Shown in pieces: positions 2,195 to 27,820 of a stretch of 52,429 nt of DNA. Every line of letters begins with the position of its first letter. Position 1 is the stretch's first letter. This DNA comes from a virus (Duplodnaviria; Caudoviricetes). Where the stretch lies: IMG/VR virus record IMGVR_UViG_3300032516_002092, positions 1 to 52,429 of that record; one strand, written 5' to 3'. The notes beneath the pieces are model-generated. The model searched no databases. It was not told where the DNA came from and saw nothing but the letters and a program-made list of their open reading frames with translations. The translations under genes and the position numbers were made by a program.

Positions 2195-2465
2195 GCTTGA
2201 GGTGACCATTGTCTGCAAGGCGAGTGCTATAGCCGGTCGGCCGCCTCGTGGCGCAATCATCGAGATCACTGGTGACCTACCGGACGGGACCCGGTGGCCA
2301 CTAGAACGCTGGGACGCCTTGCTAGACGAGCAGGCGCAAAGTATCGAGCGGATATTGCGGCGGAACCTGCCTGGCGGCACTTATGACCGGCTCCTGTGTC
2401 GGATGCTCGCCGCCAAGGCGTCCCGCTTCGCAGTAGCACACGAGAGCGACGATGCCGGCACTTGA
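2181..2465 (+). CDS. Hypothetical protein
   Basis: Fills the gap between annealase and nuclease with overlapping ends (MPPTELEVTIVCK...). Confidence 0.5.
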   Translation: MPPTELEVTIVCKASAIAGRPPRGAIIEITGDLPDGTRWPLERWDALLDEQAQSIERILRRNLPGGTYDRLLCRMLAAKASRFAVAHESDDAGT

Positions 2466-3225
2466 GCATCTGTCGCACTCCAGCATCCAGACATATCTCC
2501 AGTGTCCCCGGGCGTGGTCGTTTCGTTATCGGGAGGGGGTCCGGGCCCCCTCCTCTCCGGCACTTGTGCTGGGGAGCGCCTTGCATGGAGCGGTAGAGGA
2601 CATACTCCGGCGGCGGCGTACAGGCCAGCCGGTGCCGCTGGCCGAGGTGTGGCAGGAGCAGTGGGCCAAGGCCACCGCACAGCCAGTCGAGTGGGGCGCC
2701 GATATGCCAGAGCAGTTCGCCAACGACGGCTACCGGCTGCTGGCGCATCCGGACACGGCCACTACGCTGGACGGCCTGGTGCCCCTGGTGGAGGATGGAG
2801 TGCTCGCTATTGAGAGGCGGGTGGAGTTGCGAGTGCCGGGAGTGCCAATCCCCGTCCTGGGGTTCATCGACCTGATCACCGCTGATCACGTCCCGACCGA
2901 CTTCAAGACCAGCTCGAAGCCCTGGACGCCCGAAAAGGCGGCGGCAGAGACCCAGCCGCTGATTTATCTCGCCGCGCTGAACCAGGCCGGGCACCACTTG
3001 AACACATCCTTTCGCTTCCGGCACGTCGTCTGGGTGAAGGGCCGGGTGCCACAGGTACAGGTAATCGAGACGAGCCACACGATTGGTGCTGTGCTGTGGG
3101 TGCTCCGGATGATCCGGGATGTCTGGCTGGCTATCGACAGCGGGTCCTTCCCGCCTAATCCCGGCACCTGGAGTTGCGCGCCGAGGTGGTGCTCATACTG
3201 GACCTTGTGTAGAGGCAAGGAGTAA
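2452..3225 (+). CDS. PD-(D/E)XK nuclease, Cas4/RecB-like (PDDEXK_1)
   Basis: LSHSSI..Y..CP, GSALH, GFIDLI, DFKT, Q..IY and a C-terminal C..WC...C; four Cys suggest an Fe-S cluster. Confidence 0.85.
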   Translation: MPALEHLSHSSIQTYLQCPRAWSFRYREGVRAPSSPALVLGSALHGAVEDILRRRRTGQPVPLAEVWQEQWAKATAQPVEWGADMPEQFANDGYRLLAHPDTATTLDGLVPLVEDGVLAIERRVELRVPGVPIPVLGFIDLITADHVPTDFKTSSKPWTPEKAAAETQPLIYLAALNQAGHHLNTSFRFRHVVWVKGRVPQVQVIETSHTIGAVLWVLRMIRDVWLAIDSGSFPPNPGTWSCAPRWCSYWTLCRGKE

Positions 3226-4879: not shown

Positions 4880-5106
4880 CGGACGATACTGACACGCTGA
4901 CAGTGTACCTGACCCGCAATCAGATCGCGACCATCAAGGAGTGTATCGGATTCTCTGAGGACAAGATCCGCAACTTCGACTACACCTATGGGCAGTATAC
5001 CGAGGAACGATGGCGGGAGGGAGAGCAGACGCGCAAGGCCAGTCTGGCCAGCTTGCAGGATGCTAAGGCCGCCCTGCCCGACTTGCGCCGGAGGGCGAAG
5101 GGATGA
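4876..5106 (+). CDS. Hypothetical protein
   Basis: GTGA overlap with upstream stop and ATGA overlap with next gene. Confidence 0.55.
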   Translation: MTDDTDTLTVYLTRNQIATIKECIGFSEDKIRNFDYTYGQYTEERWREGEQTRKASLASLQDAKAALPDLRRRAKG

Positions 5107-6515
5107 CAGAGACGCCCGTGGCACCCAGGCCCTGGCCCGAAGCCCAACAGATATTGCCGCCACTTTCGCAGAGCGAGCGCCAATCGCTGGCGGCTAGTAT
5201 CGCGCGGTCAGGTGTGCAACATCCAATCCTCACGCTGACAGATGGGCGTATCATCGATGGCCATCACCGTTGGGAGTTGTCCAATGGCAAGGCGCCGATC
5301 GAGATTCGGGACTTGCCCGAAGAAGAAGCCCTAGCACTGGCGCTGGCACTGAACATCGCCCGCCGGCAGTTGTCGCCCGCGCAGTTGGGGGAAGTACAAG
5401 AGCGCTTGCGGAAGAGTGCCGAGCTTCGGAAGCAGACAGCGCTGAAACTGCGCGACCAGGGCATGACTCAAGAGCAGACGGCGGCAACGGTTGGGGTTAC
5501 ACAATCAACCGTACACGAGTGGGAAGAGCAAGCGAGGATACAGGGCGGAAGCAATATCAAAATCGATAATGCTTCCCATTCCGAACCTCCCGCTTCGAAA
5601 ACTTCTCTGCCCCCCGATCTACGCACCACGGTTCCCGCACATGAGAAGGAGCGCATCTATGAGCGGGTGCTGGCGGGTGAGAGTCACGAAGCGGTCGCAG
5701 CCGACTATCACATAACGCGACGGCGGGTGGGGCAGATCGTCAAGGATCTGGCGAAAGAAGAGCGTCGGCGGGAGCGGGAAGAGGAGCGAGTGAAGCCGCC
5801 GGCAATCGTCAAGCCTTCCCCTACTCTCCACCAAGCCAGAGCAGAGGCGCTACCAATCGCTGATGAGTCTGTGGACGTGATCATCACTTCGCCGCCCTAC
5901 AACCTGGGGGACGGCGATTGGCCGATGGGCGGTGAGGGGCGCACCCCACGCGAGCAGGGTATCGGGTATGAGGACGCCAAGCCCGAAGCAGAGTACCAGA
6001 CCTGGCAGGTGCAGGTGTTCCGTGAGCTGTACCGGGTGGCCAAGCCAGGCGCCAGCTTCTTCTACAACCACAAGTGCCGGCAGCGGGACGGTCGAGTTAT
6101 TCACCCGATGGACTGGATTCGTCACCCTGACAACCCGTGGATTCTGCGTCAGGAGATCGTCTGGGACCGGGGCAGCACGCATAACCATTCGCCGGCGCTG
6201 TTCTGGCCCGAGGATGAGCGCATCTATTGGATGACCAAAGGTAGGCCCGTTATCCCAGAAGGGGGAATAGCGCAACCTTCCGTGTGGCGCCTTTTCGGGC
6301 CGGTTCCGAACACTTGGCACCCGGCGCCCTTCTCCGACGAGCTGCCCAAACGCTGCCTGCAAGCTATAGGCCGACCGGGAATTGTAGTGCTAGACCCCTT
6401 CGGTGGCAGCATGACAACCTGCAAGGTTGCCCTGGCTATGGGCTACGAGGCAATCGGTGTAGATGTGTGCGCCGAGTATGTGAACCGAGCCAAGGGGGAA
6501 AACGGGTGGAATTAG
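5103..6515 (+). CDS. ParB-N/HTH-DNA methyltransferase fusion (beta-class N4/N6 methylase)
   Basis: IIDGHHR ParB motif; HTH QEQTAATVGVTQSTV; TSPPY catalytic motif preceding HPAPF and VLDPFGGS. Confidence 0.85.
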   Translation: MTETPVAPRPWPEAQQILPPLSQSERQSLAASIARSGVQHPILTLTDGRIIDGHHRWELSNGKAPIEIRDLPEEEALALALALNIARRQLSPAQLGEVQERLRKSAELRKQTALKLRDQGMTQEQTAATVGVTQSTVHEWEEQARIQGGSNIKIDNASHSEPPASKTSLPPDLRTTVPAHEKERIYERVLAGESHEAVAADYHITRRRVGQIVKDLAKEERRREREEERVKPPAIVKPSPTLHQARAEALPIADESVDVIITSPPYNLGDGDWPMGGEGRTPREQGIGYEDAKPEAEYQTWQVQVFRELYRVAKPGASFFYNHKCRQRDGRVIHPMDWIRHPDNPWILRQEIVWDRGSTHNHSPALFWPEDERIYWMTKGRPVIPEGGIAQPSVWRLFGPVPNTWHPAPFSDELPKRCLQAIGRPGIVVLDPFGGSMTTCKVALAMGYEAIGVDVCAEYVNRAKGENGWN

Positions 6516-8957: not shown

Positions 8958-9959
8958 ATGCCAATCGACATCGCAGACCTGAAAAGCCGGGTGGACTTGC
9001 TGGCAGTAGTGGAGGCCGACTTGGGACCGGCACGGCGTCACAACGGACGCTGGCTGTCCTACGTCTGTCCCTTCCACAACGACGGCGACCACGATGGCGG
9101 CAGCCTCCGGGTGACACCTGACACCGGCACCTGGTTCTGTTTTGGCTGCCAACGATCGGGCGACGCCATAGCCTGGCTTCGCTTGCGCCAGGGCCTATCC
9201 TTCGTGGAGGCCTGCCAGCAGCTCGGGGCAGACTCCGGCGACGATCACACAACCGGCTTCCCGGCACGGACAGTGCCGGCAAAGCACTCGCAGCCGCTGC
9301 CAAGCTGGAGCCAGTGTGCCGAGGATGTCGTCAAGCGGGCACAGGACTACCTCTGGAGTGATGGTGGTGAACATGCCCGCGACTACCTGTTCCGCCGGGG
9401 CCTGCGAGGAGACACACTGCGGCGCTGGGAAGTCGGCTACAACCCGGGCCGGTACGCTGTGCTGGGAATCCTGACGGCAAAAGGTGAACACGCTACAGTC
9501 TTACGGGGTGTTACGCTACCGGCGAGAGTCGGCGGCCAGTTGTGGGGGGTGAAGATCCGCCAGCCGGAAGGCTGGGAGCCGAAGTATGTCGGCCTCGATG
9601 GTGGCAAGGTGGCGCTCTATGGCGTTGACACGCTGGACAAGCCGGTCACCCTGCTGGCCGAGGGCGAGTTTGACGCCATGCTGGCCTGGCAGGAAGCCGG
9701 TGATATCGTGGGGGCGGCCACCACTACCGGCGGCGCTCGGGTATGGCAGCGGGAGTGGGGCCTGCACTTATTGCGTTCTCGGGCGGTGCTGGTGGCATAC
9801 GATCTGGACAAGGCGGGAGAGGACGGCGCCGCTCAGGTGATGGCGTTGTCGGCCAGGATGCAGCGGGTTCGAGTGCCGAAGGGGAAGGACATCACCGCTT
9901 ACTGGCAGTCTAGCGGTGACGTTCGTGGCTGGATTCAGGGACTAGTCAAGGTGGGGTAG
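8958..9959 (+). CDS. dnaG: DNA primase (CHC2 zinc finger + TOPRIM)
   Basis: CPFH...WFCFGC..GDAI; YL..RGL; AEGEFDA; YDLDKAG; KDITAY. Confidence 0.9.
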   Translation: MPIDIADLKSRVDLLAVVEADLGPARRHNGRWLSYVCPFHNDGDHDGGSLRVTPDTGTWFCFGCQRSGDAIAWLRLRQGLSFVEACQQLGADSGDDHTTGFPARTVPAKHSQPLPSWSQCAEDVVKRAQDYLWSDGGEHARDYLFRRGLRGDTLRRWEVGYNPGRYAVLGILTAKGEHATVLRGVTLPARVGGQLWGVKIRQPEGWEPKYVGLDGGKVALYGVDTLDKPVTLLAEGEFDAMLAWQEAGDIVGAATTTGGARVWQREWGLHLLRSRAVLVAYDLDKAGEDGAAQVMALSARMQRVRVPKGKDITAYWQSSGDVRGWIQGLVKVG

Positions 9960-10010
9960 CAGTTCAACGCCCTGGGGAGGGCGAGAGAATAAACGGAGGA
10001 GAGAGACAAA

Positions 10011-10622
10011 GTGCCAACACGGAAAGCAGCGGCGGGACCAATCGCAATCAAGCCTTTGGACGTGCGGGTGACAGAGATCGAGGTCGTGGGGAAGTCAGAG
10101 CTTATCGTCCACCAGTGGAGTGAGAAGGCAAAGCGCCAGATGCTTGACAAGCAGATGGGCAAGGCGCAGCCCAAGAAGGAGAAGAAGGACCCGGAAGCCG
10201 ACTACGAGGCCAGCAAGTACAGGCTGCCGGATGGCGGTTGCGGGTTCCCGGCGTCGGGGTTCAAGGCGGCCATCGTGGGCGCCTGTCGGCTCTTCGACGG
10301 GCTCACCATGACGCAGGTGAAAGTTTGCGTTCGGGTGCTCGGTGAGGATGACGGCGAGCTGGTGCGTATCGTCGGAGAGCCTCGGATGCGTGAGGACATG
10401 GTGCGGCTGGAGTCGGGAGTGGCGGACATTCGGCACCGGGCCGGCTTCCCGGAGTGGCGGGCGAAGTTGCGGATTCGACACATCGCCAACGTGGTCACGG
10501 ACGAGATCCTGCTCAACCTGGTGAGTGCAGCAGGTGAGGGCGGTGTAGGCGAGTGGCGACCAAGTGCGCCCAACAGTGTGACTGGCTCGTTTGGGTGCTT
10601 CGAAGTGGCGACTGGCGACTAA
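10011..10622 (+). CDS. RAMP/Cas7-like protein directly preceding a GGY-NN array (Vipr-like candidate)
   Basis: N-terminal strand IEVVGKSELIVH, FPASGFKAAI (cf. RAMP IPGSSLKG), C-terminal glycine-rich loop GVGEWRP...GSFGCFEV; GGAGGA RBS; stop codon abuts the array. Confidence 0.7.
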   Translation: MPTRKAAAGPIAIKPLDVRVTEIEVVGKSELIVHQWSEKAKRQMLDKQMGKAQPKKEKKDPEADYEASKYRLPDGGCGFPASGFKAAIVGACRLFDGLTMTQVKVCVRVLGEDDGELVRIVGEPRMREDMVRLESGVADIRHRAGFPEWRAKLRIRHIANVVTDEILLNLVSAAGEGGVGEWRPSAPNSVTGSFGCFEVATGD

Positions 10623-11392
10623 GGCATAGCGGACGTGGTGCGGGGAGGTGTGGGTTGGTGGGGCAGACCACGGTGGTACAAGGCGGGGTGCGGCGTGGAT
10701 TGGCAGTCAAGGTGTGTCAGGAGGAGGCTAGGCATGTCCGGGTGCGGCCTGGTTCGGTGAGGCAGTCGAGGCGCGACATGGCCAGGCCCGGCCTGTCATG
10801 GTCTGGTAGGTTTTGCTCGGCTTGGGCTTGGCGAGGCAGTCAAGGTGTGGGCGTCAAGGTGGGCTACGGCGTATCGAGGGCTGGACGGGCACGGAGGGGC
10901 AAGGCAGTCGTGGTGAGGTTTGGGCTGGAGTGTACGGACGTGGTGAGGCAGACACGGGGAGGCGGTGCGGGCCAAGGCGCGGCGAGTCTGGGCTTGCTGC
11001 GGAGCGGCAAGGCAGTCAAGGTCAGGTCTGGCACGTCGGGGCCGGTCGAGTTACGGCATGGCCGGGCAGACATGGTCTGGTATGTCGAGTCAACGCATGG
11101 TATGGCGGTGTGCGGCAGTCGAGGCGTGGTTTGGACTGGTGAGGTGGTGCGGGGTGAGGCCCGGTGGGACTTGGCAGTCACGGTGAGGCGCGGCGATGTC
11201 CGGTCGGGCTAGTTCGGGTGTGCTGTGGCGCGGCAGTCGGGGTAAGGCGGGTCACGGCTCGGCGTGGCCAGGCCCGGTGGGTCAAGGCAGTCGAGGTTGG
11301 TTGTGTCGGTGCGCGGGTTGGCTTGACGTGGTGGGGCAGACTTGGTGTGGCGGGATGAGTCTTGGCGAGCAGAGACGAGGCCAGGCAGGCGC
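10623..11392 (+). repeat. Apparently non-coding array of GGY-NN pentamer blocks delimited by GGCAG(T/A)C; candidate guide-RNA array
   Basis: 13 exact GGCAGWC at 10662, 10702, 10761, 10835, 10903, 10947, 11011, 11065, 11114, 11173, 11232, 11286, 11335, plus degenerate copies at 10623, 10849, 11384; spacings are almost all 9+5n. Confidence 0.9.
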
Positions 11393-11418
11393 GGTAATCG
11401 GGTGAAAGGAGCGACAAC

Positions 11419-11643
11419 GTGGAGTGCAAGCTAGCGGGCAACCTGAAGAGCATCACCATCAAGCAGGGCAAGGCCGACGCCGAGACGGGCGGGCGGGATG
11501 CGCCGGTGGCAGTGGTGCAACTGGAGGTGGACGCGACCGACACGCTGGGGCGTTTGGCTCTGTTCGTGGGCCAGTCGGTGAGGGTGACGATCAAGTCCGA
11601 CCTACTGGCGTTCGAGGGCGCCGTGCGGGAGGTGACATCGTGA
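11419..11643 (+). CDS. Hypothetical protein
   Basis: AAAGGAG RBS, GTG start, overlaps next ORF. Confidence 0.6.
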   Translation: MECKLAGNLKSITIKQGKADAETGGRDAPVAVVQLEVDATDTLGRLALFVGQSVRVTIKSDLLAFEGAVREVTS

Positions 11644-11837
11644 CGTTCCTAGCGGGGCTACTGGTGGGTGGTGTAGTCGGCGCCTGCCTCGGCGTCCTGG
11701 TGGCGGCGCTCTGCGGCATCGGGCACCGGGCTGAGCTGGACCGGACGTACCGGGACGAACGCCGGGCGTCGTGGGACAGCGGGTACGGGGCGGGGTACAG
11801 TGATGGGACCAGAAAAGCGGTGAGGAGGGTGGGGTAA
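11640..11837 (+). CDS. Small membrane protein
   Basis: Hydrophobic FLAGLLVGGVVGACLGVLVAALC; GGAGGTG RBS; GTGA overlap. Confidence 0.55.
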   Translation: MTFLAGLLVGGVVGACLGVLVAALCGIGHRAELDRTYRDERRASWDSGYGAGYSDGTRKAVRRVG

Positions 11838-11876
11838 GCGAGCCTAGCGGGCGAGTAGTGGTGCTAACGTCAGCAC

Positions 11877-11906
11877 TTGACATCGAGTGAAGATGTGCGG
11901 TATAAT
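11877..11906 (+). promoter_or_regulatory. Sigma70-type promoter upstream of HTH-tnpB
   Basis: TTGACA (11877-11882), 18 bp spacer, TATAAT (11901-11906). Confidence 0.75.
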
Positions 11907-11941
11907 AGTGACTAGTAGAAGATACATAAGGGAGGGTGGGC

Positions 11942-12154
11942 ATGAACCCGATTGTGACTCTTCGGAAGAGTCTGGGGATGACGAGAGTGGAGGCCGCACA
12001 GAAGATGGGCGTCTCCTACCAGGACCTAACGCTTTTGGAGAACGGATACCCACTGTATCTGCCGGGCCGAGTCATGGACGCGTTACCGAAGCTGGGCGCC
12101 AACTCCGAGCTAATCGCGGCCGAGTACAAGGCGTGGCGAGAGGCGAGGGGGTAG
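11942..12154 (+). CDS. XRE-family HTH regulator
   Basis: LRKSLGMTRVEAAQKMGVSYQDLTLLENG; GGGAGG RBS. Confidence 0.8.
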   Translation: MNPIVTLRKSLGMTRVEAAQKMGVSYQDLTLLENGYPLYLPGRVMDALPKLGANSELIAAEYKAWREARG

Positions 12155-12159
12155 AGGCC

Positions 12160-13377
12160 GTGCTCAGGGCGTATCGCACGGAACTGGATCCCAACAATGC
12201 GCAGCAGACAGTGTTCGTTCGCCATGCTGGGGCCGCGAGATTCTGTTTCAACTGGGCACTGGCCGACAGGATCGAGCGGTTCAAGGCGGGCCAACCGACC
12301 AACCACTACGAACAGAAGAAGCGGTTCAACGCCCTGAAGAAGGAGCAATTCCCCTGGCTCTCCGAGGTGGCGTACAAGGTCCAGGAGCAAGGCCTCGCCA
12401 ATCTGGACATAGCCTACAAGAACTTCTTCCGCCGGGTCAAGAGGGGCGAGGTCAAGAAGGGGTTCCCCCGATTCAAGTCGCGCAAACGAGGGCTAGGCGG
12501 GTTCACTCTACGGGGCAACCTCACCGTCGAGCGGCAGCGTATCAATCTGCCGGTAATCGGTTGGGTGAAGATCAAGGAGGCAGGCTACCTTCCGCAGGCA
12601 GACGTGAGGGTTCTATCAGCCAATGTCTCTGAGCGGGTGGGGCGTTGGTTTATCAGCCTCCAGGTAGAGCAGGAGACCGCACAGCCAAAGCCCGCCACCG
12701 GTCCATCCATCGGCGTGGATGTGGGGCTGAAAGTGCTGGCGGTGTGTTCGGATGGGACCGTGTTCGAGAATCCGAAGACGCTGAAGCGCAATGAGGCCCG
12801 GCTAGCGCAACTTCAGCGGGAGATGTGCCGACGCCAGAAGGGAAGTAAGAACCGAGCCAAGACGCGACGCAAGGTGGCCAAGCTGCACTTCAAGGTCGCC
12901 AACATTCGCAAGCATACCATCCACCAAGTAAGCCACTACCTGACGGCGAAAGCCAAGCCGCAGACGGTGGTAATCGAGGATCTGAACGTCAAGGGCATGA
13001 TGCAGAATCGGAAACTGAGCAAGGCGATTGCGGACGCCTCCTGGGGCGAGCTTCGGCGGCAGTTGGAGTACAAGGCGGCCTGGTATGGCGTGGATCTGGT
13101 GGTGGCTGGACGATTCTACCCGAGCAGCAAGACGTGCTCGGCCTGTGGGAACGTCAAGCCTTTACTGCGACTCTCTGAGCGAACCTTTGTCTGCGAGGCG
13201 TGCGGGATGGTTCTGGACCGCGACGCTAACGCATCGATCAACCTCCAGAACCTCGCCGCTAAACGGGCGGTGGCTGCCTGTGGAGGGAGTATAGGTCCAG
13301 GTGCAAGCCTGGCGGTTCCCGGTGAATCAGGAACTCGGCAGGCACTCGGTCACAAGTCCGAGAAGTTGGGAGGGTAG
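12160..13377 (+). mobile_element. tnpB: TnpB RNA-guided endonuclease (IS200/IS605/IS607 family), no TnpA nearby
   Basis: LRAYRTELDP..., GAARFCFNWAL, GFPRFKS, RuvC GVDVG / IEDLNV / DRDANAS, zinc ribbon PSSKTCSACG..CEACG. Confidence 0.92.
13200..13355 (+). ncRNA. Probable omegaRNA/reRNA overlapping tnpB 3' end
   Basis: GCCTGTGGAG...GTGAATCAGGAA resembles the usual tnpB right-end scaffold; boundaries are inferred. Confidence 0.45.
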
Positions 13378-13381
13378 GGTA

Positions 13382-15901
13382 ATGGACTGGCCAGTAGTAT
13401 TGGCGTTCGTGGCAGGCGTCGTGTGTGGCGTGGTTGGCGTCTTCGTCGCCGCCATGTGGGTGGCGGCCGATGCGGGGTACGCCGCTTCGCCGGAGGGGCT
13501 GGCGGAGTGCGTGAAGGGGAAGGAGTGATGGCACGGAGACCAGACTTGGCGGACTGGCTGATGGTGGTGCTACTGGCCATAGGCTGCGTCGTGCTGATAT
13601 GGGACGTGTGGCTGGCGGGCGAGTGGCTGCTGCGGGGGATGGGGAGGTGACCGTGGAGACAGCGAGGGATAAGGCCATTGAGGAGATCGGCCTGGTGGCA
13701 GTGGAGAGGCTGGAGAAGGCCGGGCTCAAGGTCGAGCGCTACGCCACCCAGTGCGCGGGGTGTGCTTGGCGCCGCACTTGCCAGTCTCTGGGGCTGCCGG
13801 TATGGGCATGCGAACAGTACCGGCCAGAGAGGGAGGGGGCATGACAGAGCAACCGGTTCTGGACGTGCGAACGCTGACGATTCTGCTGGCGACCGAGGCC
13901 TACAGGATGAGCGAGTATTGGGCGTGCAGGCTGCTGCACTGCACGCCAGCGCAGTACCGGCGGATGCGGTCAGAGGCGGTCGCGATGGGGATGGCGGAGG
14001 TGAAGAAGGAGGATGAGTAAGCCGATAACTGACGAAGCACTAAAAGCGGCGCTGCGGTGGGCGTCGGGCCACGGGGCCGAAAACGGTGGATGGCATGTGG
14101 AGGCGCTGCTGCGAGAAGTAGGGCGGCTGCGTCTGGAGAATGAGCGACTACAGAAGGAGTTGGCGCTGCACCAAGGCGATGCAAGGGACGACGCTCTCTG
14201 GCAGGACGAGGGGGGCTGGAAGTAGCCATGAGCGAGCAACTGACGGATGCGGAACTGGAGCAAGCACTAGCGGACGCGTGCACATGCAATGCGACTGCTA
14301 CCGAGCGGCGGCTGGCGAGCTTTGCTTGGCGAGTGGTGCCGGAGGTGCGGCGGCTGCGGCTGCTGGAGCGGGAAGTCTGGATAGTCCAGCAAGCCGATCT
14401 GCTCTGGCAGGAGGCGATCGAGGATTACGAACCAGCCAGTTGGGCGGTGATGCCAATCTGGTGGAGGGACCTGGTATACAGGCTACTGGCCTTTGTGGAG
14501 GGGAAGCATGAGTGAGCAGCCAACAGTAACTACGTGCCCAACCTGCGGCAACCCGGGAGACACTGGCAGCGGGTGGGGAAACCCGCTCTGCGAATTCTGC
14601 CCGGATAGGATAGAGGCCAGGCAGAGAGAACAGGACGATGAGCCTGGGGACCTGCCGCTGCCCCAAACGGAGCGCAAACTCATCCGGGCTCGTATCGTTG
14701 GGCGGCGCAAGCGCCCGGACCTGGTGCTGAAGGAAAGCACGGAAGGTGCCGACGTTGACGCTATTGCCCACATTTGGGATGGTTTGGCTGATCCTGAGTT
14801 CCGAGCACTACTCGCAACGCAGTTGGCGCGGACAGAGGCTCGGTTCCGGGCGGAGAAGCTGCGGCAGGAGAATAAGCGGCTGCTGCAGCAGAGCAAGGCG
14901 CTCTTTACGGAGTTGAAGCGGGCGTATGACTTGGTAGCCATTGAACGGGCCAGGGGTTGTCTCTCTGACACCGATGAGCAGGCCGCCGTTGAGGAACTGC
15001 GGCTGCTGCGGGAAGTGGCAGATGCAGACTGGGAAGAGCAAAGACTGCGGGCGCTGACAGCCCAGGGCCAGCGGTTTGACGAGGAGTTCAGCACTACGTG
15101 GGCGACAGCAGTGAACCGGCACGATGCCGCTCTCGCTGCCTGGCGCACAGGGAGGGAGGGACAGCCGTGACTGAGCAGGATTGGCGCCCAGGCTGGGCAG
15201 ACGAGTGTGATGACTGCTCGTGCCGAGTGGTTACCCTGTCTGATTTACCTGGATGCACGTGGGATGGCGCCATAGAGGACTGGCGCCCGCCGTGGTGCCC
15301 CTGGTGCAAGGGACAGGAGGGGAAGCATGAGTGAGGCGCCGGTCTGGCCGGAGCCAGGCGATATGGGCAAGTGTTTCGGCTGCGAGTACCAGGAACGTCA
15401 GTTTGGCCGGGACCATTATACCTGCATCGCCTTGGTGGAGCAGATACCGGAGTGGTGCCCGCTGCCCGATGCACCGGAAGAGGGGAAGCCGTGAGTGAGC
15501 ACGTGTCAGTCGAGTTGGGGAAGCGACTGGCGGAAGCGGGCCTGATGCATACTGAGTGGCGGACAGGAGACTGGGCTGTTCATCCAGAAAAGCCTGACTG
15601 GCTCATGCTGATACAAACAACCAAGGGAGGTATACTCTACTGGTATGATGCTCAACATACAGCCTCGTGGTGGACTCAAGGGCGACATATAGGAGTGGGT
15701 GCGGAGTTGGTCTGGCTGCCCACGGCGGGCCAGTGCCTGGAGGCGCTGCACCAGTTGGGGGGCATAGATGCCGGAGCCTTGGCTAACTATTGCCAGTGGG
15801 TGGTTGTACCTGAGCGGATGGCGAGCAGGGAATACTTGAATGGCTCCCTCGCCGAAGCCGCCGGTCTCGCCCTGGCGGCGGTACTGGAGGAGAGGCCATG
15901 A
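13382..15901 (+). other. Chain of about 10 small translationally coupled hypothetical ORFs
   Basis: For example 13382-13528, 13528-13650, 13647-13844, 13841-14020, 14013-14225, 14228-14515, 14508-15170, 15167-15334, 15491-15901; strong RBSs and overlapping start/stop codons. Confidence 0.65.
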
Positions 15902-16269: not shown

Positions 16270-16541
16270 CCGTACGCCGGATTGATCGCATCCAGGTTGA
16301 CGTTGTTACCGGACTCCGGAGAGCAGGGGCAGACATCCAGCATTTGCATATGGTCGGGCATGGGTGCCCGGACTTGTTGGTGATCTTTCGGGGCAGTCTG
16401 TTTTTGCTTGAGCTCAAGTCGCCCGGCGGGCGCCTCACGCCGCTTGAACGCTGCTGGCATGACAGGTGGCCGGGACCGGTGCATATCGTCCACTCGCTCG
16501 ATGAGGCGCTGGTGGCCATCGGTGCCGAGGTGGTGCGGTGA
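16266..16541 (+). CDS. VRR-NUC-like nuclease
   Basis: GCPDLLV..RG..FLLELKSPGGRLTP. Confidence 0.75.
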   Translation: MTVRRIDRIQVDVVTGLRRAGADIQHLHMVGHGCPDLLVIFRGSLFLLELKSPGGRLTPLERCWHDRWPGPVHIVHSLDEALVAIGAEVVR

Positions 16542-17272
16542 TCGAGATGCTGTCCTACGGTGCCGGTGTCAACTCGACCGCGCTAGCTATCCTGATGGTC
16601 AACCGAGGATGGCGGGGCGAGATCGTCTTCTCGGACACCGGCGCCGAATGGCCTGAGACCTACTGCCATCTCGACTACTTCGAGCAGCAGTGGCTCAAGC
16701 CTCGCGGCCTATCGGTGACGGTGTTGCGGGGCTTGCCTTGGCAACGCAAAGGCCAGGGGTGGTCGCTCATTGACTACTGTGAAGCCAGGAGCATGATACC
16801 GCTGGCGGCTATGCGGTGGTGTACGGTGGGGTGGAAGTCGGAGCCGCTGGAGCGCTACCGCCTGCACATCGGCGCTGACCGGGTAGCCATCGGGATTGCT
16901 GCCGACGAGGGCCATCGTCAGAAGGGCCATTGGTGCCCGCTGGTAGACGAGGGCATTGACCGCAAGGGCTGCATCCGCATCATCCAGGCCGAGGGGCTGG
17001 ACGTGCCGAGAAAGTCAGGATGCTGGCTATGTCCGTTCCAGCGGCGGTCACAGTGGCGGGAGTTGTGGCAGCAGCACCCGGACCTGTTCGAACGGGCGGC
17101 AAGGCTGGAGGAAGCGGTCGCAGAGAAGCGGGACAAGAACTGCACCTTCGACCCCGATGGCAAGCGAACCCTGCGCGACCTGGAGCGGGGCTTTCGGGCG
17201 CAACTGCCGATGCTGGACGATGAGGTGATGGCTGATTTGGTCGAGTACAAACCGTGTGTGTGTGGGCTGTAG
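16538..17272 (+). CDS. PAPS-reductase-like (PP-loop) protein
   Basis: SYGAGVNST, FSDTGAEWPETY, RWCT..WK, GIAADE, KSGCWLCPF. Confidence 0.8.
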   Translation: MIEMLSYGAGVNSTALAILMVNRGWRGEIVFSDTGAEWPETYCHLDYFEQQWLKPRGLSVTVLRGLPWQRKGQGWSLIDYCEARSMIPLAAMRWCTVGWKSEPLERYRLHIGADRVAIGIAADEGHRQKGHWCPLVDEGIDRKGCIRIIQAEGLDVPRKSGCWLCPFQRRSQWRELWQQHPDLFERAARLEEAVAEKRDKNCTFDPDGKRTLRDLERGFRAQLPMLDDEVMADLVEYKPCVCGL

Positions 17273-18385: not shown

Positions 18386-19558
18386 ATGGCTAAGGCACCG
18401 GCGATCAGGGACCGAATCAAGGATCTGCGGCGGGTACGGGCCGGCGACCTTCTGCCCGAGCCTCGCAACTGGAGACGACACCCCAAGGCGCAAAGTGACG
18501 CCTTACTTGGCGTGCTTCGTGAGATAGGCTACGCCGATGCCCTCCTGGCCCGGGAGACGCCCGAGGGCCTGATGCTCATCGATGGCCACCTCCGGGCCAG
18601 TTTGACGCCGGATACGCTGGTGCCGGTCCTGGTCCTGGACGTGACCGAGGCCGAAGCGGCGACCATCCTCGCAACGCTGGATCCTCTCGCCGCAATGGCC
18701 CAGGCCGATAAGTCGGCACTGGACGCCCTGCTCAGAGACGTGAGCACTGGCGAGGCGGCGGTGCAGAAGATGCTGGCGGACCTTGCCAAGCAGAGTGGGC
18801 TCGATTACGGCGAGGAGCCAAAGCCTGACCCCGGCTCGCAGATTGACCGAGCCGAGGAGTTGCGGGAGAAGTGGCAGACAGAGCGGGGGCAGTTGTGGCT
18901 TGTCGGGAAGCACCGCCTGCTTTGTGGCGATAGCACGAAGGCAGAGGACGTGGCCCGGCTGATGGACGGGGAGCGGGCGGTAATGCTCTGGGCCGACCCT
19001 CCGTACTCGCGCGACTACGAGAGCCGTGGGGCCAAGGGCGATTGCGTGTCAACTGGAAGATGGGCAGCCATTTTGAGCAGCTTGGCGGGTTGGACCGCTC
19101 GGATTGGCAGTTGGTATGTGAAGCTGCCCTGGTACGACGCTGTAATCGCAGTGCCGGTACTAAGGCCGAAGCATCTTATCGTATGGGCAAAGCAAGGCTT
19201 TGGGCTTGGTAGGGGGGATTTTCGCCCCCAACATGAGATGCTTCTCTATGGGCGCGAGGGCGGCGTGTGTAACGCTGGCGCTGACCTGGGTGATGTCTGG
19301 ACATTCGCTGTCCCGTTCCGTGGCAGGATGCACCACGTCGCAGAAACGCCGACGCCGCTCATAGTGCAAGCTGTTGAGGTGAGTAGCCAACCCGGAGACT
19401 TGGTAGTCGACCCGTTCGCCGGAAGTGGTACTGCTCATGTCGCTGCAGAGCAACTCGACCGTGTCTGCTACGGCATGGAGATCGAGCCGAAGTACGTCGC
19501 CGTGTCCCTTCAGCGTATGGCCGACATGGGGCTCACGCCCAAGCTGGCCGATGCTTGA
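18386..19558 (+). CDS. ParB-N + DNA adenine methyltransferase
   Basis: PRNWRRHP, LIDGHLR, HRLLCGDST, ADPPY, VDPFAGSGT, MEIEPKY. Confidence 0.88.
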   Translation: MAKAPAIRDRIKDLRRVRAGDLLPEPRNWRRHPKAQSDALLGVLREIGYADALLARETPEGLMLIDGHLRASLTPDTLVPVLVLDVTEAEAATILATLDPLAAMAQADKSALDALLRDVSTGEAAVQKMLADLAKQSGLDYGEEPKPDPGSQIDRAEELREKWQTERGQLWLVGKHRLLCGDSTKAEDVARLMDGERAVMLWADPPYSRDYESRGAKGDCVSTGRWAAILSSLAGWTARIGSWYVKLPWYDAVIAVPVLRPKHLIVWAKQGFGLGRGDFRPQHEMLLYGREGGVCNAGADLGDVWTFAVPFRGRMHHVAETPTPLIVQAVEVSSQPGDLVVDPFAGSGTAHVAAEQLDRVCYGMEIEPKYVAVSLQRMADMGLTPKLADA

Positions 19559-27236: not shown

Positions 27237-27743
27237 TTGTCAACCAAGTGGGGGCAGGAGCCGGCAGGGCGCCGGTTTGACATCTGGATGGCAGAACACG
27301 CCGATGGATGGCGCTGGGTTACGGGGGCCAATTCGGATGTGGGGGATGGCAAGACTCCTCGGCTATGGCTGTTGCCGCCAGATGTGCAGCCTTCGCAGGT
27401 TCGCCCCGGCACCTGGGACTACTTCGACCATGGCACCGTAAACGGTGAGTGGCGCAAGGGAGTAACGCTGTTCGATGTTCCCCGCTACACCGAGGACATG
27501 GGGGAAGCCTGGAAGTTGGCTCTGCGCTATGGGCTCATGGTCTCGCCCAGCATGACGGCTGGCTGGTGTGCTGGACAGTTCAAGGGGGCTACCGGAGATC
27601 TGGACGGCGGCAGGCGCTATTGTGTGCCGGGCACCTGGGCTGAAGCACCGTTTGCGTCGCTGGCAATCTGTCGGGCGGCCAGTCTCGTGATTCACCAGTT
27701 GCACCCAGGGGTCGGGTGTTGTGAGGTGGAGGCAGCAACCTAG
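27237..27743 (+). CDS. Phage ABA-sandwich-like domain protein
   Basis: VPRYTEDMGEAWKL...AEAPFASLAICRAA; AGGAGG RBS, TTG start. Confidence 0.6.
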   Translation: MSTKWGQEPAGRRFDIWMAEHADGWRWVTGANSDVGDGKTPRLWLLPPDVQPSQVRPGTWDYFDHGTVNGEWRKGVTLFDVPRYTEDMGEAWKLALRYGLMVSPSMTAGWCAGQFKGATGDLDGGRRYCVPGTWAEAPFASLAICRAASLVIHQLHPGVGCCEVEAAT

Positions 27744-27768
27744 CCCCAACCGCACACCGAGCGAGTGC

Positions 27769-27797
27769 AGCCCGCCGGAGATGGTGGGCTTTTGTTT
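27769..27797 (+). terminator. Intrinsic terminator
   Basis: AGCCCGCC / GGTGGGCT stem followed by TTTGTTT. Confidence 0.65.
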
Positions 27798-27820
27798 GAG
27801 CAGTAGGAGGCAGCAGAAGC

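Follow-up and report, generated by a model that had tools for sequence, protein, structure and literature searches.

A probable VIPR locus with a tail-less, staggered guide array in the genome of an uncultured sediment phage

The window analysed here (the whole stretch of 52,429 bp) is the genome of an uncultured sediment phage, and it very probably carries a VIPR system, a kind of system already in print. VIPR (Viral Interference Programmable Repeat) was first described in 2026 preprints as a CRISPR-like viral RNA-guided DNA silencer. In the available parts of these preprints, one protomer occupies each repeat and sequesters a GGY triplet, and the NN dinucleotides are read against DNA with one base skipped (bioRxiv 10.64898/2026.04.26.720920 and.720927). 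The locus shows adjoining tandem YNNGG (GGY/NN) repeats (at least 4 units) with a fixed scaffold and variable NN, as a VIPR system should. The following features were assigned.

10011–10622, + strand: putative vipr gene for a 203-aa stand-alone RAMP (Cas7-like) protein (from the ORF, a profile match and the predicted fold)
10623–11388, + strand: putative vrRNA array of about 14 head-to-tail guide units made of G-[G/T]-Y-NN pentamers (from a parse of the sequence)
11419–11643, + strand: 74-aa ORF just 3′ of the array, a candidate neighbour whose membership of the system is not implied

The vipr ORF (612 nt) begins with GTG and ends with TAA, and its protein includes GFPASGFKAAIVGA and GGVGEWRPSAPNSVTGSFG; a G-loop, GVGEWRP, lies at residues 178–184. 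No Pfam, NCBIfam or PADLOC family was found for the protein, and its PHROG match (phrog_4652, E 2.5e-29) has no known function. When the single sequence was searched against the PDB, the sole match was the Vipr protein of phage SUSP1 (36pp_D) at E 0.91, and profiles of 42 and 31 homologues matched the same chain at E 4.3e-8 and 5.2e-11, no other PDB chain falling below E 0.05 in either profile search. This likeness in sequence lies mainly within the C-terminal 60 residues. GGY is held in SUSP1 Vipr by H17, R138, D177, W178 and R179, according to the available text (bioRxiv 10.64898/2026.04.26.720927). The profile alignment gave H34, R143, E181, W182 and R183 as their counterparts, the H17/H34 pairing being in a weak segment of the alignment and D177 to E181 being a conservative change. 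In the family all five are invariant or reach at least 90% conservation, and every family-invariant residue is retained in this protein.

An AF2 model of the protein (pLDDT 88.7, pTM 0.83) was compared with known structures. Foldseek returned 46 PDB matches at E ≤ 0.001, the best being Csm3 (E 1.2e-5), and VIA gave Z scores up to 10.2 (Cmr4, Csm3), with CRISPR RAMPs in all of the top 26 rows. The predicted fold is that of a Csm3/Cmr4-like RAMP, its thumb being judged by the conserved R143 only, and the product of 10011–10622 is assigned from its sequence to the Vipr family of RAMPs. A preliminary description of this DNA had proposed a RAMP/Cas7-like protein, and the structural matches, together with SUSP1 Vipr as the only solved sequence match, bear it out. 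It had also suggested that each protomer binds one GGY while the NN pairs spell a gapped target, which is the mechanism published for VIPR in the available text and would apply here by analogy, and that the locus was a VIPR member rather than a new class, a view upheld by the profile match to 36pp_D, the conserved GGY-holding residues and the array.

Class 1 CRISPR-Cas Cas7 proteins (Csm3, Cmr4, type VII Cas7) are the best structural matches; they share the RRM/RAMP fold, a glycine-rich loop and, in principle, the use of one protomer per RNA segment of fixed length. They differ in that only 8–16% of residues are identical in structural alignments, and in that their period is 6 nt with 5 bases read, compared with 5 nt and 2 read bases here. 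Neither the other components of a class 1 set (Cas5, Cas6, large subunit, adaptation genes) nor a repeat-spacer array were found in the window. As noted before, cas1, cas2 and cas3 were not found among its 60 ORFs, where the PADLOC matches were limited to a Cas4-like phage exonuclease and a TnpB/Cas12f-like protein, and a search of the whole window for CRISPR-type repeats (direct, 22 nt or longer, within 120 nt) gave none.

The surrounding genes are of phage type (exonuclease, methyltransferases, primase, head morphogenesis, portal), and helicase-like and primase genes lie directly 5′ of the vipr/array region. No megablast match to the phage genome was found among GenBank phages. The 74-aa ORF matched no Pfam, NCBIfam or PADLOC family and had no relative in IMG/VR and none detectable near other vipr genes; in Atlas it fell in unnamed viral clusters only, a weak AbrB/MazE-like lead being under the bar.

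The array starts at 10623, directly after the TAA of vipr, and comprises 766 nt, of which 47% are G (373 of the 788 bases in 10623–11410). The autocorrelation of G was +0.28, +0.25, +0.20 and +0.21 at lags of 5, 10, 15 and 20, and -0.09 at lag 3. Pairs of GG 5 nt apart numbered 62 in 10623–11388, against a mean of 31.6 (sd 5.0, max 47) in 500 dinucleotide-preserving shuffles. Lags and shuffles thus confirmed the earlier remark that the stop codon of the 203-aa gene adjoins ~770 bp of G-rich DNA with a 5-nt, not a 3-nt, period. Two detectors that work independently were run over both strands of the window, and neither reported another such tract.

About 140 pentamers could be parsed in 10623–11388, arranged in units of 8–15 pentamers. 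Among 104 inner pentamers, position 1 was G in 93%, position 2 was G in 73% and T in 16%, and position 3 was a pyrimidine in 90%. The GGY-like scaffold claimed at first needs one correction, the canonical GGY accounting for only 61 of the 104 (59%). The NN positions (n = 115) included all 16 dinucleotides and no NN string was common to two units, so the units do differ from one another, as had been stated.

Units are joined by GGCAG[AT]C, which occurs 13 times in the tract (10662 through 11335), with 23 further copies in the other ~51.6 kb of the + strand; the - strand has 6. Successive junctions are 40, 59, 74, 68, 44, 64, 54, 49, 59, 59, 54 and 49 nt apart, and 10 of these 12 spacings equal 4 mod 5 (9+5n). 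The 9+5n rule proposed earlier holds to this extent; its "all but one" depended on extra delimiters, namely a GGCAT after the stop codon (giving 39), a degenerate GGCGTC near 10850 (giving 14+54) and GGCAGGC at 11384 (giving the last 49). The next unit (G-T/A-C-NN) already begins with the last G of GGCAG, and since this G belongs to both units, the pentamer phase slips by -1 at each junction. With the G counted twice, 11 of the 14 units consist of whole pentamers only, 9–15 in each. The units, all on the + strand, were as follows.

10623–10666: unit 1 (tentative), GGCAT at the stop codon, then 8 pentamers ending in GGCAG (10627–10666) parsed by eye
10666–10706: unit 2, 41 nt, irregular, its junction without the 1-nt overlap (spacing 40)
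10706–10765: unit 3, 12 pentamers
10765–10839: unit 4, 15 pentamers, register ambiguous in pentamers 10–13
10839–10907: unit 5, 69 nt, irregular, with 11 pentamers in 10853–10907; it holds a short partial duplicate that ends in the degenerate junction GGCGTC
10907–10951: unit 6, 9 pentamers
10951–11015: unit 7, 13 pentamers
11015–11069: unit 8, 11 pentamers
11069–11118: unit 9, 10 pentamers
11118–11177: unit 10, 12 pentamers
11177–11236: unit 11, 12 pentamers
11236–11290: unit 12, 11 pentamers, the cleanest unit, whose sequence (from 11232) is exactly as quoted in the preliminary description
11290–11339: unit 13, 10 pentamers
11339–11388: unit 14, 10 pentamers, with the terminal junction GGCAGGC, a form frequent in the wider family

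Could such a tract be no guide array at all, but a DNA element (iterons, an origin, a G-quadruplex tract) or a Gly/Arg-rich coding region? It does follow directly on the helicase-like and primase genes, and a 219-aa ORF (10553–11212) runs through it. However, the period is 5 nt and the lag-3 autocorrelation is negative; the variable positions are exactly the two used by the published code, as given in the available text; and in unrelated phages, where the genes around vipr have no similarity to those of the window, tracts of this kind accompany the vipr homologue and lie on its strand. We regard this explanation as almost certainly wrong.

The company of gene and tract was followed in 149 related loci (IMG/VR, 80; GTDB genomes, 69). 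In 135 of them, a G[GT]Y-NN run lay on the strand of the vipr homologue and within 1.5 kb of it; the loci without a run were 7 with adequate flanks and 7 with a flank under 800 nt. Only 1 opposite-strand run occurred in 1.37 Mb. The pairing of a vipr homologue and a pentamer array, both on one strand, is conserved in the family. Within the arrays of 123 loci, 305 of 504 GGCAG spacings equalled 4 mod 5. The homologues are spread over many phyla, with identities of at most 54% in cellular genomes, and cultured Mycobacterium and Gordonia phages carry the same Vipr clade, annotated as hypothetical. When 11 neighbouring proteins were compared with the 149 loci by tblastn, 10 had no match and the remaining one, a methyltransferase, had one weak match, in a single locus (L105).

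The array resembles most closely the staggered VIPR arrays, which the legend of fig. S18 describes as having vrRNAs that overlap by 1 nt (bioRxiv 10.64898/2026.04.26.720920). Alike, as far as that legend describes them, are the stand-alone phage Vipr RAMP with adjoining same-strand pentamers of the GGY/NN type, the single nucleotide common to successive units, so that the end of one guide is the start of the next, and the lack of CRISPR repeats and cas1/2/3; the GGCAG(T/A)C junction is known from the present locus. The single-nucleotide overlap was seen here at the sequence level only. In the available text of the same preprint, the staggered layout is absent from the list of architectures confirmed by small-RNA sequencing, and the scaffold forms named are YNNGG, NNNGG, YNNNG and NNNNG, with no GTY form (bioRxiv 10.64898/2026.04.26.720920). 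Here, in contrast to the arrays described there, GTY replaces GGY in about a sixth of the scaffolds, and the companion gene usual in the clade is missing.

Type II VIPR (Escherichia phage SUSP1 and a Pseudomonas fulva prophage; PDB 36pp) shares the protein family (profile E 5e-11), the G-loop GVG(D/E)WRP, the thumb arginine and hypervariable NN, and its guides have 9–16 repeats, compared with 8–15 here, according to the part of the preprint available (bioRxiv 10.64898/2026.04.26.720927). The same source gives the SUSP1 vrRNAs as ~100 nt long and four per phage, with a conserved ~40-nt pseudoknot tail (bioRxiv 10.64898/2026.04.26.720927). In contrast, the 14 or so units of the present array abut through a junction of 4–5 nt, with no predicted structure or Rfam match, and there is no vap1-like neighbour. 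A structured 3′ tail of the SUSP1 type is absent, the units being joined by GGCAG(T/A)C only. Rfam gave no family in 9500–14000 at E ≤ 1, the predicted RNA fold of 10990–11300 was no more stable than shuffles (z -1.0), and no terminator-like site was found in 9700–12000. A search of public sequencing runs for the stretch listed one DNA run (a sediment metagenome, possibly the source) and no RNA run; reads of this DNA run gave no cover of the stretch, 59% of the run being read.

Most relatives checked have canonical GGY in 88–100% of triplets, against 59% of the inner triplets here, and therefore some units may be decaying. A wider decay might also be supposed, in which the protein is intact but the guides have drifted from GGY, the companion has been lost and silencing is gone. 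Besides the 61 of 104 canonical triplets, the 3 of 14 units out of register and the lack of a target for seven guides (see below), the missing companion would fit this: a gene of ~160 aa lies between vipr and array in 63 of the 79 relatives with such a gap, and a six-frame search of the whole window gave no match to it. On the other hand, the family-invariant residues of Vipr are all present, positions 1 and 3 of the inner pentamers remain G and pyrimidine at 93% and 90%, and 11 of the 14 units are in exact register. T at position 2 is the rule in two relatives, L013 (100%) and L006 (76%), whose scaffolds are almost exclusively GTY, GG being confined to the terminal GGCAG. As for the companion, an accessory vap gene beside vipr is typical of VIPR systems and is not stated to be obligatory in the text available, and that of SUSP1 is described there as boosting silencing and being dispensable for it (bioRxiv 10.64898/2026.04.26.720920). 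A crippled locus is accordingly considered unlikely.

The composition of the NN (n = 115) was best fitted by sense codon positions 1–2 of the phage's own genes (-440 bits), compared with -460 for a uniform model, -459 for the next-best frame and -485 for antisense positions 1–2, although this codon-like bias could partly stem from the general G-richness of the tract. The 11 cleanly parsed guides were scanned, with skips of 0–3 nt, against the array-masked phage and 80 related loci. Under the 1-nt-skip rule, no guide rose above the shuffled-guide nulls in the phage or in the 80 loci. For the other skips against phage DNA, the lowest shuffle fractions among 44 tests were 0.014 and 0.018 (2-nt skip, guides 10706 and 10765, respectively) and 0.006 (0-skip). 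The last was from guide 11290–11339, which agrees with phage positions 27780–27797 in 16 of the 18 bases, a score reached by 6 of 1000 shuffles. As a target it was rejected and taken as chance because the site is a terminator-like hairpin, and it was 1 of the 44 tests.

Seven of the ~14 guides were searched in public collections, and no convincing target was found for them. Exact 1-nt-skip motifs gave 0 matches in IMG/VR for units 10, 12 and 8 at full length, three scans that kept the first NN of the unit and would be over-constrained if that NN is not read, and 0 matches for units 7 and 11 with the first NN dropped. A 16-base seed of unit 4 had 16 matches in IMG/VR; only 0–5 of 12 bases outside the seed agreed, as by chance, and these candidates were discarded. 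Unit 3 (NN 2–11, 20 bases) had one match, in a metagenome contig (L166, 1001–1029), which lies in frame and in sense orientation within a gene for an ABC-transporter ATPase; the constant AG agrees there, the first NN does not. It was not accepted as a target, about 1–2 such matches being estimated by chance (from the 16 seed matches in IMG/VR and an assumed 0.5–1.2e12 bases in the metagenome collection).

These searches also bear on whether the locus might form a VIPR-type RNP that works unlike that of SUSP1, with another skip length, an RNA target or a long unprocessed multi-guide RNA. The 0-skip match would favour this, as would the distance of the protein from SUSP1 Vipr (E 0.91 with the single sequence), the tail-less architecture and the mixed GGY/GTY scaffold. 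However, that match has the weaknesses already given, the residues that hold GGY are conserved, and the NN composition fits codon positions 1–2, as expected for a target period of 3 nt. Such a departure from the SUSP1 mechanism appears improbable, rather more so than decay.

If the locus is a VIPR system working as in SUSP1, the array would be transcribed together with the early replication genes, and Vipr protomers would coat each unit, one per pentamer, holding the fixed G-K-Y triplet and displaying the NN dinucleotides. These would pair with double-stranded DNA, every third base being skipped, and the bound complex would keep a competing phage, satellite or prophage from being transcribed. 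Each unit might also, as first suggested, be a processed RNA cut at GGCAGWC. From the present array we infer further that the tail-less units are bounded by GGCAG, where the phase slip, or a cut at the slip, may part adjacent Vipr filaments, and that the guides may be copied from the sense strand of protein-coding genes, leaving out the wobble base.

A more specific proposal, which we offer tentatively and hold to be possible rather than probable, is that guides in this branch are set by phase alone and that its Vipr takes G-T-Y as well as G-G-Y. The 4-nt GGCA step, a register slip of -1, would then mark both the end of one Vipr filament and the beginning of another, and a tail-less array without a ribozyme or a Cas6-type nuclease could give about 14 separate effector complexes, the parsing possibly needing no dedicated nuclease.

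Annotators should not take the tract for a gene on account of the 219-aa ORF. As a form of RNA-guided DNA recognition with a gapped code, VIPR has been described only recently, and the present locus would be a compact example of it, with a 612-nt gene and 766 nt coding about 14 guides. What sets it apart locally is that its units lack structured tails, that GGY and GTY scaffolds are mixed and that the companion gene usual in the clade is missing. With its staggered, tail-less layout it would lend itself to experiments on what fixes the ends of a guide when tail, ribozyme and hairpin are all lacking. How strict Vipr is at the second scaffold base is a question to which both the mixed GGY/GTY scaffolds of this locus and the pure GTY arrays of two relatives are relevant, and the Mycobacterium and Gordonia phages with the same clade would offer a tractable host for tests.

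The phage record, which is complete (52,429 bp, G+C 63%), carries a real, intact-looking VIPR (Viral Interference Programmable Repeat) locus, adding one more member to a class that is already published. The locus and the annotated genes downstream of it are as follows.

Features of the VIPR locus and its downstream neighbours
10011–10622, + strand: vipr, GTG start, 203 aa, TAA stop
10623–11388, + strand: array of ~14 putative guide units
11942–12154: XRE-type HTH gene, 70 aa (HTH_3 22.9 bits, cut-off 23)
12160–13377: TnpB, 405 aa (OrfB_IS605, Cas12f1-like TNB; PADLOC Cas12f model, E 1e-87)

Searches of Pfam, NCBIfam and PADLOC with the window Vipr gave no family, and in PHROGs it fell into phrog_4652, of unknown function. 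Homologues at E ≤ 1e-3 numbered 1,886 among 2,279 candidates, and a functional name was absent from all 120 that were listed. The sole match in all PDB sequences was the Vipr of Escherichia phage SUSP1 (36pp), with an E value of 0.91 for the single sequence, 4.3e-8 for a profile of 42 homologues and 5.2e-11 for a profile of 31. SUSP1 Vipr is described as holding G1, G2 and Y3 by H17, R138, D177, W178 and R179 (bioRxiv 10.64898/2026.04.26.720927). These residues aligned with H34, R143, E181, W182 and R183 of the window protein (the H17 pairing came from a weak alignment segment), each of which was at least 90% conserved across the family. The proposal of the preliminary description that the protein was RAMP/Cas7-like was borne out by an AF2 model (pLDDT 88.7), whose closest folds were Csm3, Cmr4 and other Cas7 proteins (Foldseek E 1.2e-5; VIA structure comparison Z 10.2, the best 26 rows all being CRISPR RAMPs).

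From the first base past the vipr TAA stop up to 11388, G made up 47% of the sequence. Autocorrelation of G had maxima at lags of 5, 10, 15 and 20 (+0.28 to +0.20) and was negative at lag 3, and 62 GG pairs were spaced by 5 nt, against a mean of 31.6 ± 5.0 and a maximum of 47 in 500 dinucleotide-preserving shuffles. The junction GGCAG[AT]C was found 13 times within the tract, at spacings of 40, 59, 74, 68, 44, 64, 54, 49, 59, 59, 54 and 49 nt, 10 of the 12 being 4 mod 5. The leftover spacing values reported earlier are explained by further sequences: GGCAT stands at the stop codon, GGCGTC, a degenerate form, lies near 10850, and GGCAGGC closes the tract at 11384. The earlier account of a gene followed by a 5-nt-periodic tract was accurate. 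Two detectors found no second tract of the same kind on either strand of the 52,429-bp window.

When the last G of GGCAG was also assigned to the following unit as its opening base, 11 of the 14 units became exact multiples of 5 nt, with 9–15 pentamers each, and all regular units started with G-T/A-C-NN and ended with GGC-AG. Among the inner pentamers (n = 104), position 1 was G in 93%, position 2 was G in 73% and T in 16%, and position 3 was a pyrimidine in 90%; positions 4 and 5 (the NN) were variable, with all 16 dinucleotides seen. Canonical GGY accounted for only 59% of the inner triplets. Around the array there was no Rfam match, hence no hammerhead, no terminator-like site was found, and the predicted RNA structure was no better than that of shuffles (z −1.0), indicating that the units are tail-less and abutting.

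Relatives were compared at 149 loci, 80 from IMG/VR and 69 from GTDB genomes. At 135 of the 149, G[GT]Y-NN pentamers ran on the same strand as the vipr homologue and no more than 1.5 kb from it. No run was seen at seven loci with adequate flanks and at seven others with a flank of <800 nt. More distant same-strand runs numbered 10, and opposite-strand runs only one in 1.37 Mb. A stricter, GG-only detector found an array in 123/149 loci. Inside the arrays of 123 loci, 305 of the 504 GGCAG spacings were 4 mod 5, so the −1 phase slip at the junction is common to the family. The bases after GGCAG in relatives were mostly GC (441) or GG (170); TC (40) or AC (10) occurred mainly in the sub-branch of the window, including L001, L002, L003, L006 and L013. 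Two of these IMG/VR relatives had GTC/GTT-NN arrays adjoining their vipr homologues (L013:6210–6400 and L006:4441–4950), in which GTY formed 100% and 76% of the inner scaffolds, respectively, and GG was retained only in the terminal GGCAG. The window's T at position 2 therefore characterises its sub-branch rather than being simply a sign of decay. Of the repeat forms that the available VIPR text names, none is GTY.

Among GenBank phages, 33 records encoded a protein of the same clade as the window Vipr, at ~50% identity to it (27 Mycobacterium, 5 Gordonia and 1 cyanophage; e.g. NC_028751.1 37707–38276 and MH399771.1 31280–31849); the 25 records listed call it a hypothetical protein. Three parsed loci derived from mycobacteriophages (L012, L014 and L019) had clean staggered GGC-NN arrays directly upstream of the vipr homologue, and whole units differed between related phages. 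The vipr homologue at L118:6001–6633, from a rumen Selenomonadaceae MAG, had one in-frame stop codon within its tblastn match range.

A gene of ~160 aa, marked by a conserved FEWDD-like motif, separated vipr from the array in 63 of the 79 relatives where the two are set apart (e.g. L001:3984–4466, L016:5570–6037 and L018:5663–6166). It matched no Pfam, NCBIfam or PADLOC family and is probably an accessory (vap) gene of the clade; its profile found nothing in the window. For a 74-aa ORF 3′ of the window array, no relatives were detected in the neighbourhood of other vipr genes.

Every gene around vipr was encoded on the + strand, and the interval from the primase gene to vipr lacked promoter-like sites, suggesting that the array would be transcribed by read-through from the early replication operon. 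Upstream of the XRE-type HTH gene, 11877–11906 matched the sigma-70 consensus perfectly (TTGACA, 18 nt, TATAAT; 12/12). TnpB places a second RNA-guided protein family 0.8 kb from the array; no omega-RNA was found with Rfam. Other phage genes at 2452–3225, 5103–6515, 16538–17272 and 18386–19558 were a Cas4-like/RecB-family exonuclease, two DNA methyltransferases carrying ParB-like N-terminal parts and a PAPS-reductase/SspD-like gene.

In published VIPR, one Vipr protomer per repeat is reported to coat vrRNAs (guide RNAs) of 9–16 YNNGG repeats, the NN pair with double-stranded DNA with one base in three skipped, and the bound complex acts as a transcriptional repressor; in nature it targets satellites, prophages and rival VIPR loci. 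Seven types are listed, as are various layouts of the array, among them "staggered arrays with overlapping vrRNAs" (bioRxiv 10.64898/2026.04.26.720920, 10.64898/2026.04.26.720927 and 10.64898/2026.10.15.759431). Small-RNA sequencing is described as confirming the ribozyme-interspersed and single-vrRNA layouts, and the available text does not state this of the staggered one (bioRxiv 10.64898/2026.04.26.720920). By sequence, the window array fitted the staggered layout. The lack of the ~40-nt pseudoknot tail rules out a type II (SUSP1) architecture. Protein family, array grammar and conserved gene-array linkage were all observed. The interpretation in the preliminary description was supported, as was its caveat that the locus might be a VIPR member.

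Target searches established no target. Guides were scanned against the phage itself and related loci with skips of 0–3 nt, and nothing exceeded shuffled nulls under the 1-nt-skip rule, as in published VIPR, where self-targets are absent. In IMG/VR, exact 1-nt-skip scans with five guides gave no match; for a sixth, 16 matches to a 16-base seed were rejected, all failing on extension. The seventh, unit 3, had one exact 1-nt-skip match of 20 bases (NN 2–11) in metagenome contigs, at L166:1001–1032 (22/22 bases counting the constant AG), in frame and sense in an ABC-transporter ATPase gene, reading VREYIRALSE. It was rejected as a target, one or two such matches being expected by chance on a rough estimate from collection size. 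A terminator-like hairpin and T-run at 27760–27800, after the gene at 27237–27743, included 16 bases that agreed exactly with the NN of unit 13 joined at 0 skip; 6 of 1000 shuffles were as good and this was one of 44 tests, so the match is probably due to chance.

The 115 NN fitted sense codon positions 1–2 of the phage's own genes best (−440 bits), against −459 for the next-best frame, −460 for a uniform model and −485 for antisense positions 1–2. This composition suggests a 3-nt target period and guides carrying the sense of the coding strand. Part of the fit may stem from the tract being rich in G. The codon-like NN agreed with published VIPR, in which skipped bases are reported to fall on wobble positions.

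By homology to SUSP1, one Vipr protomer per pentamer would assemble as a filament on the guide and display the NN, which would pair with DNA with a 1-nt skip, and the bound complex may silence transcription. The compactness of the window locus makes it useful mainly for testing how staggered arrays without tails are divided into guides, and how strict Vipr is at the second scaffold base.
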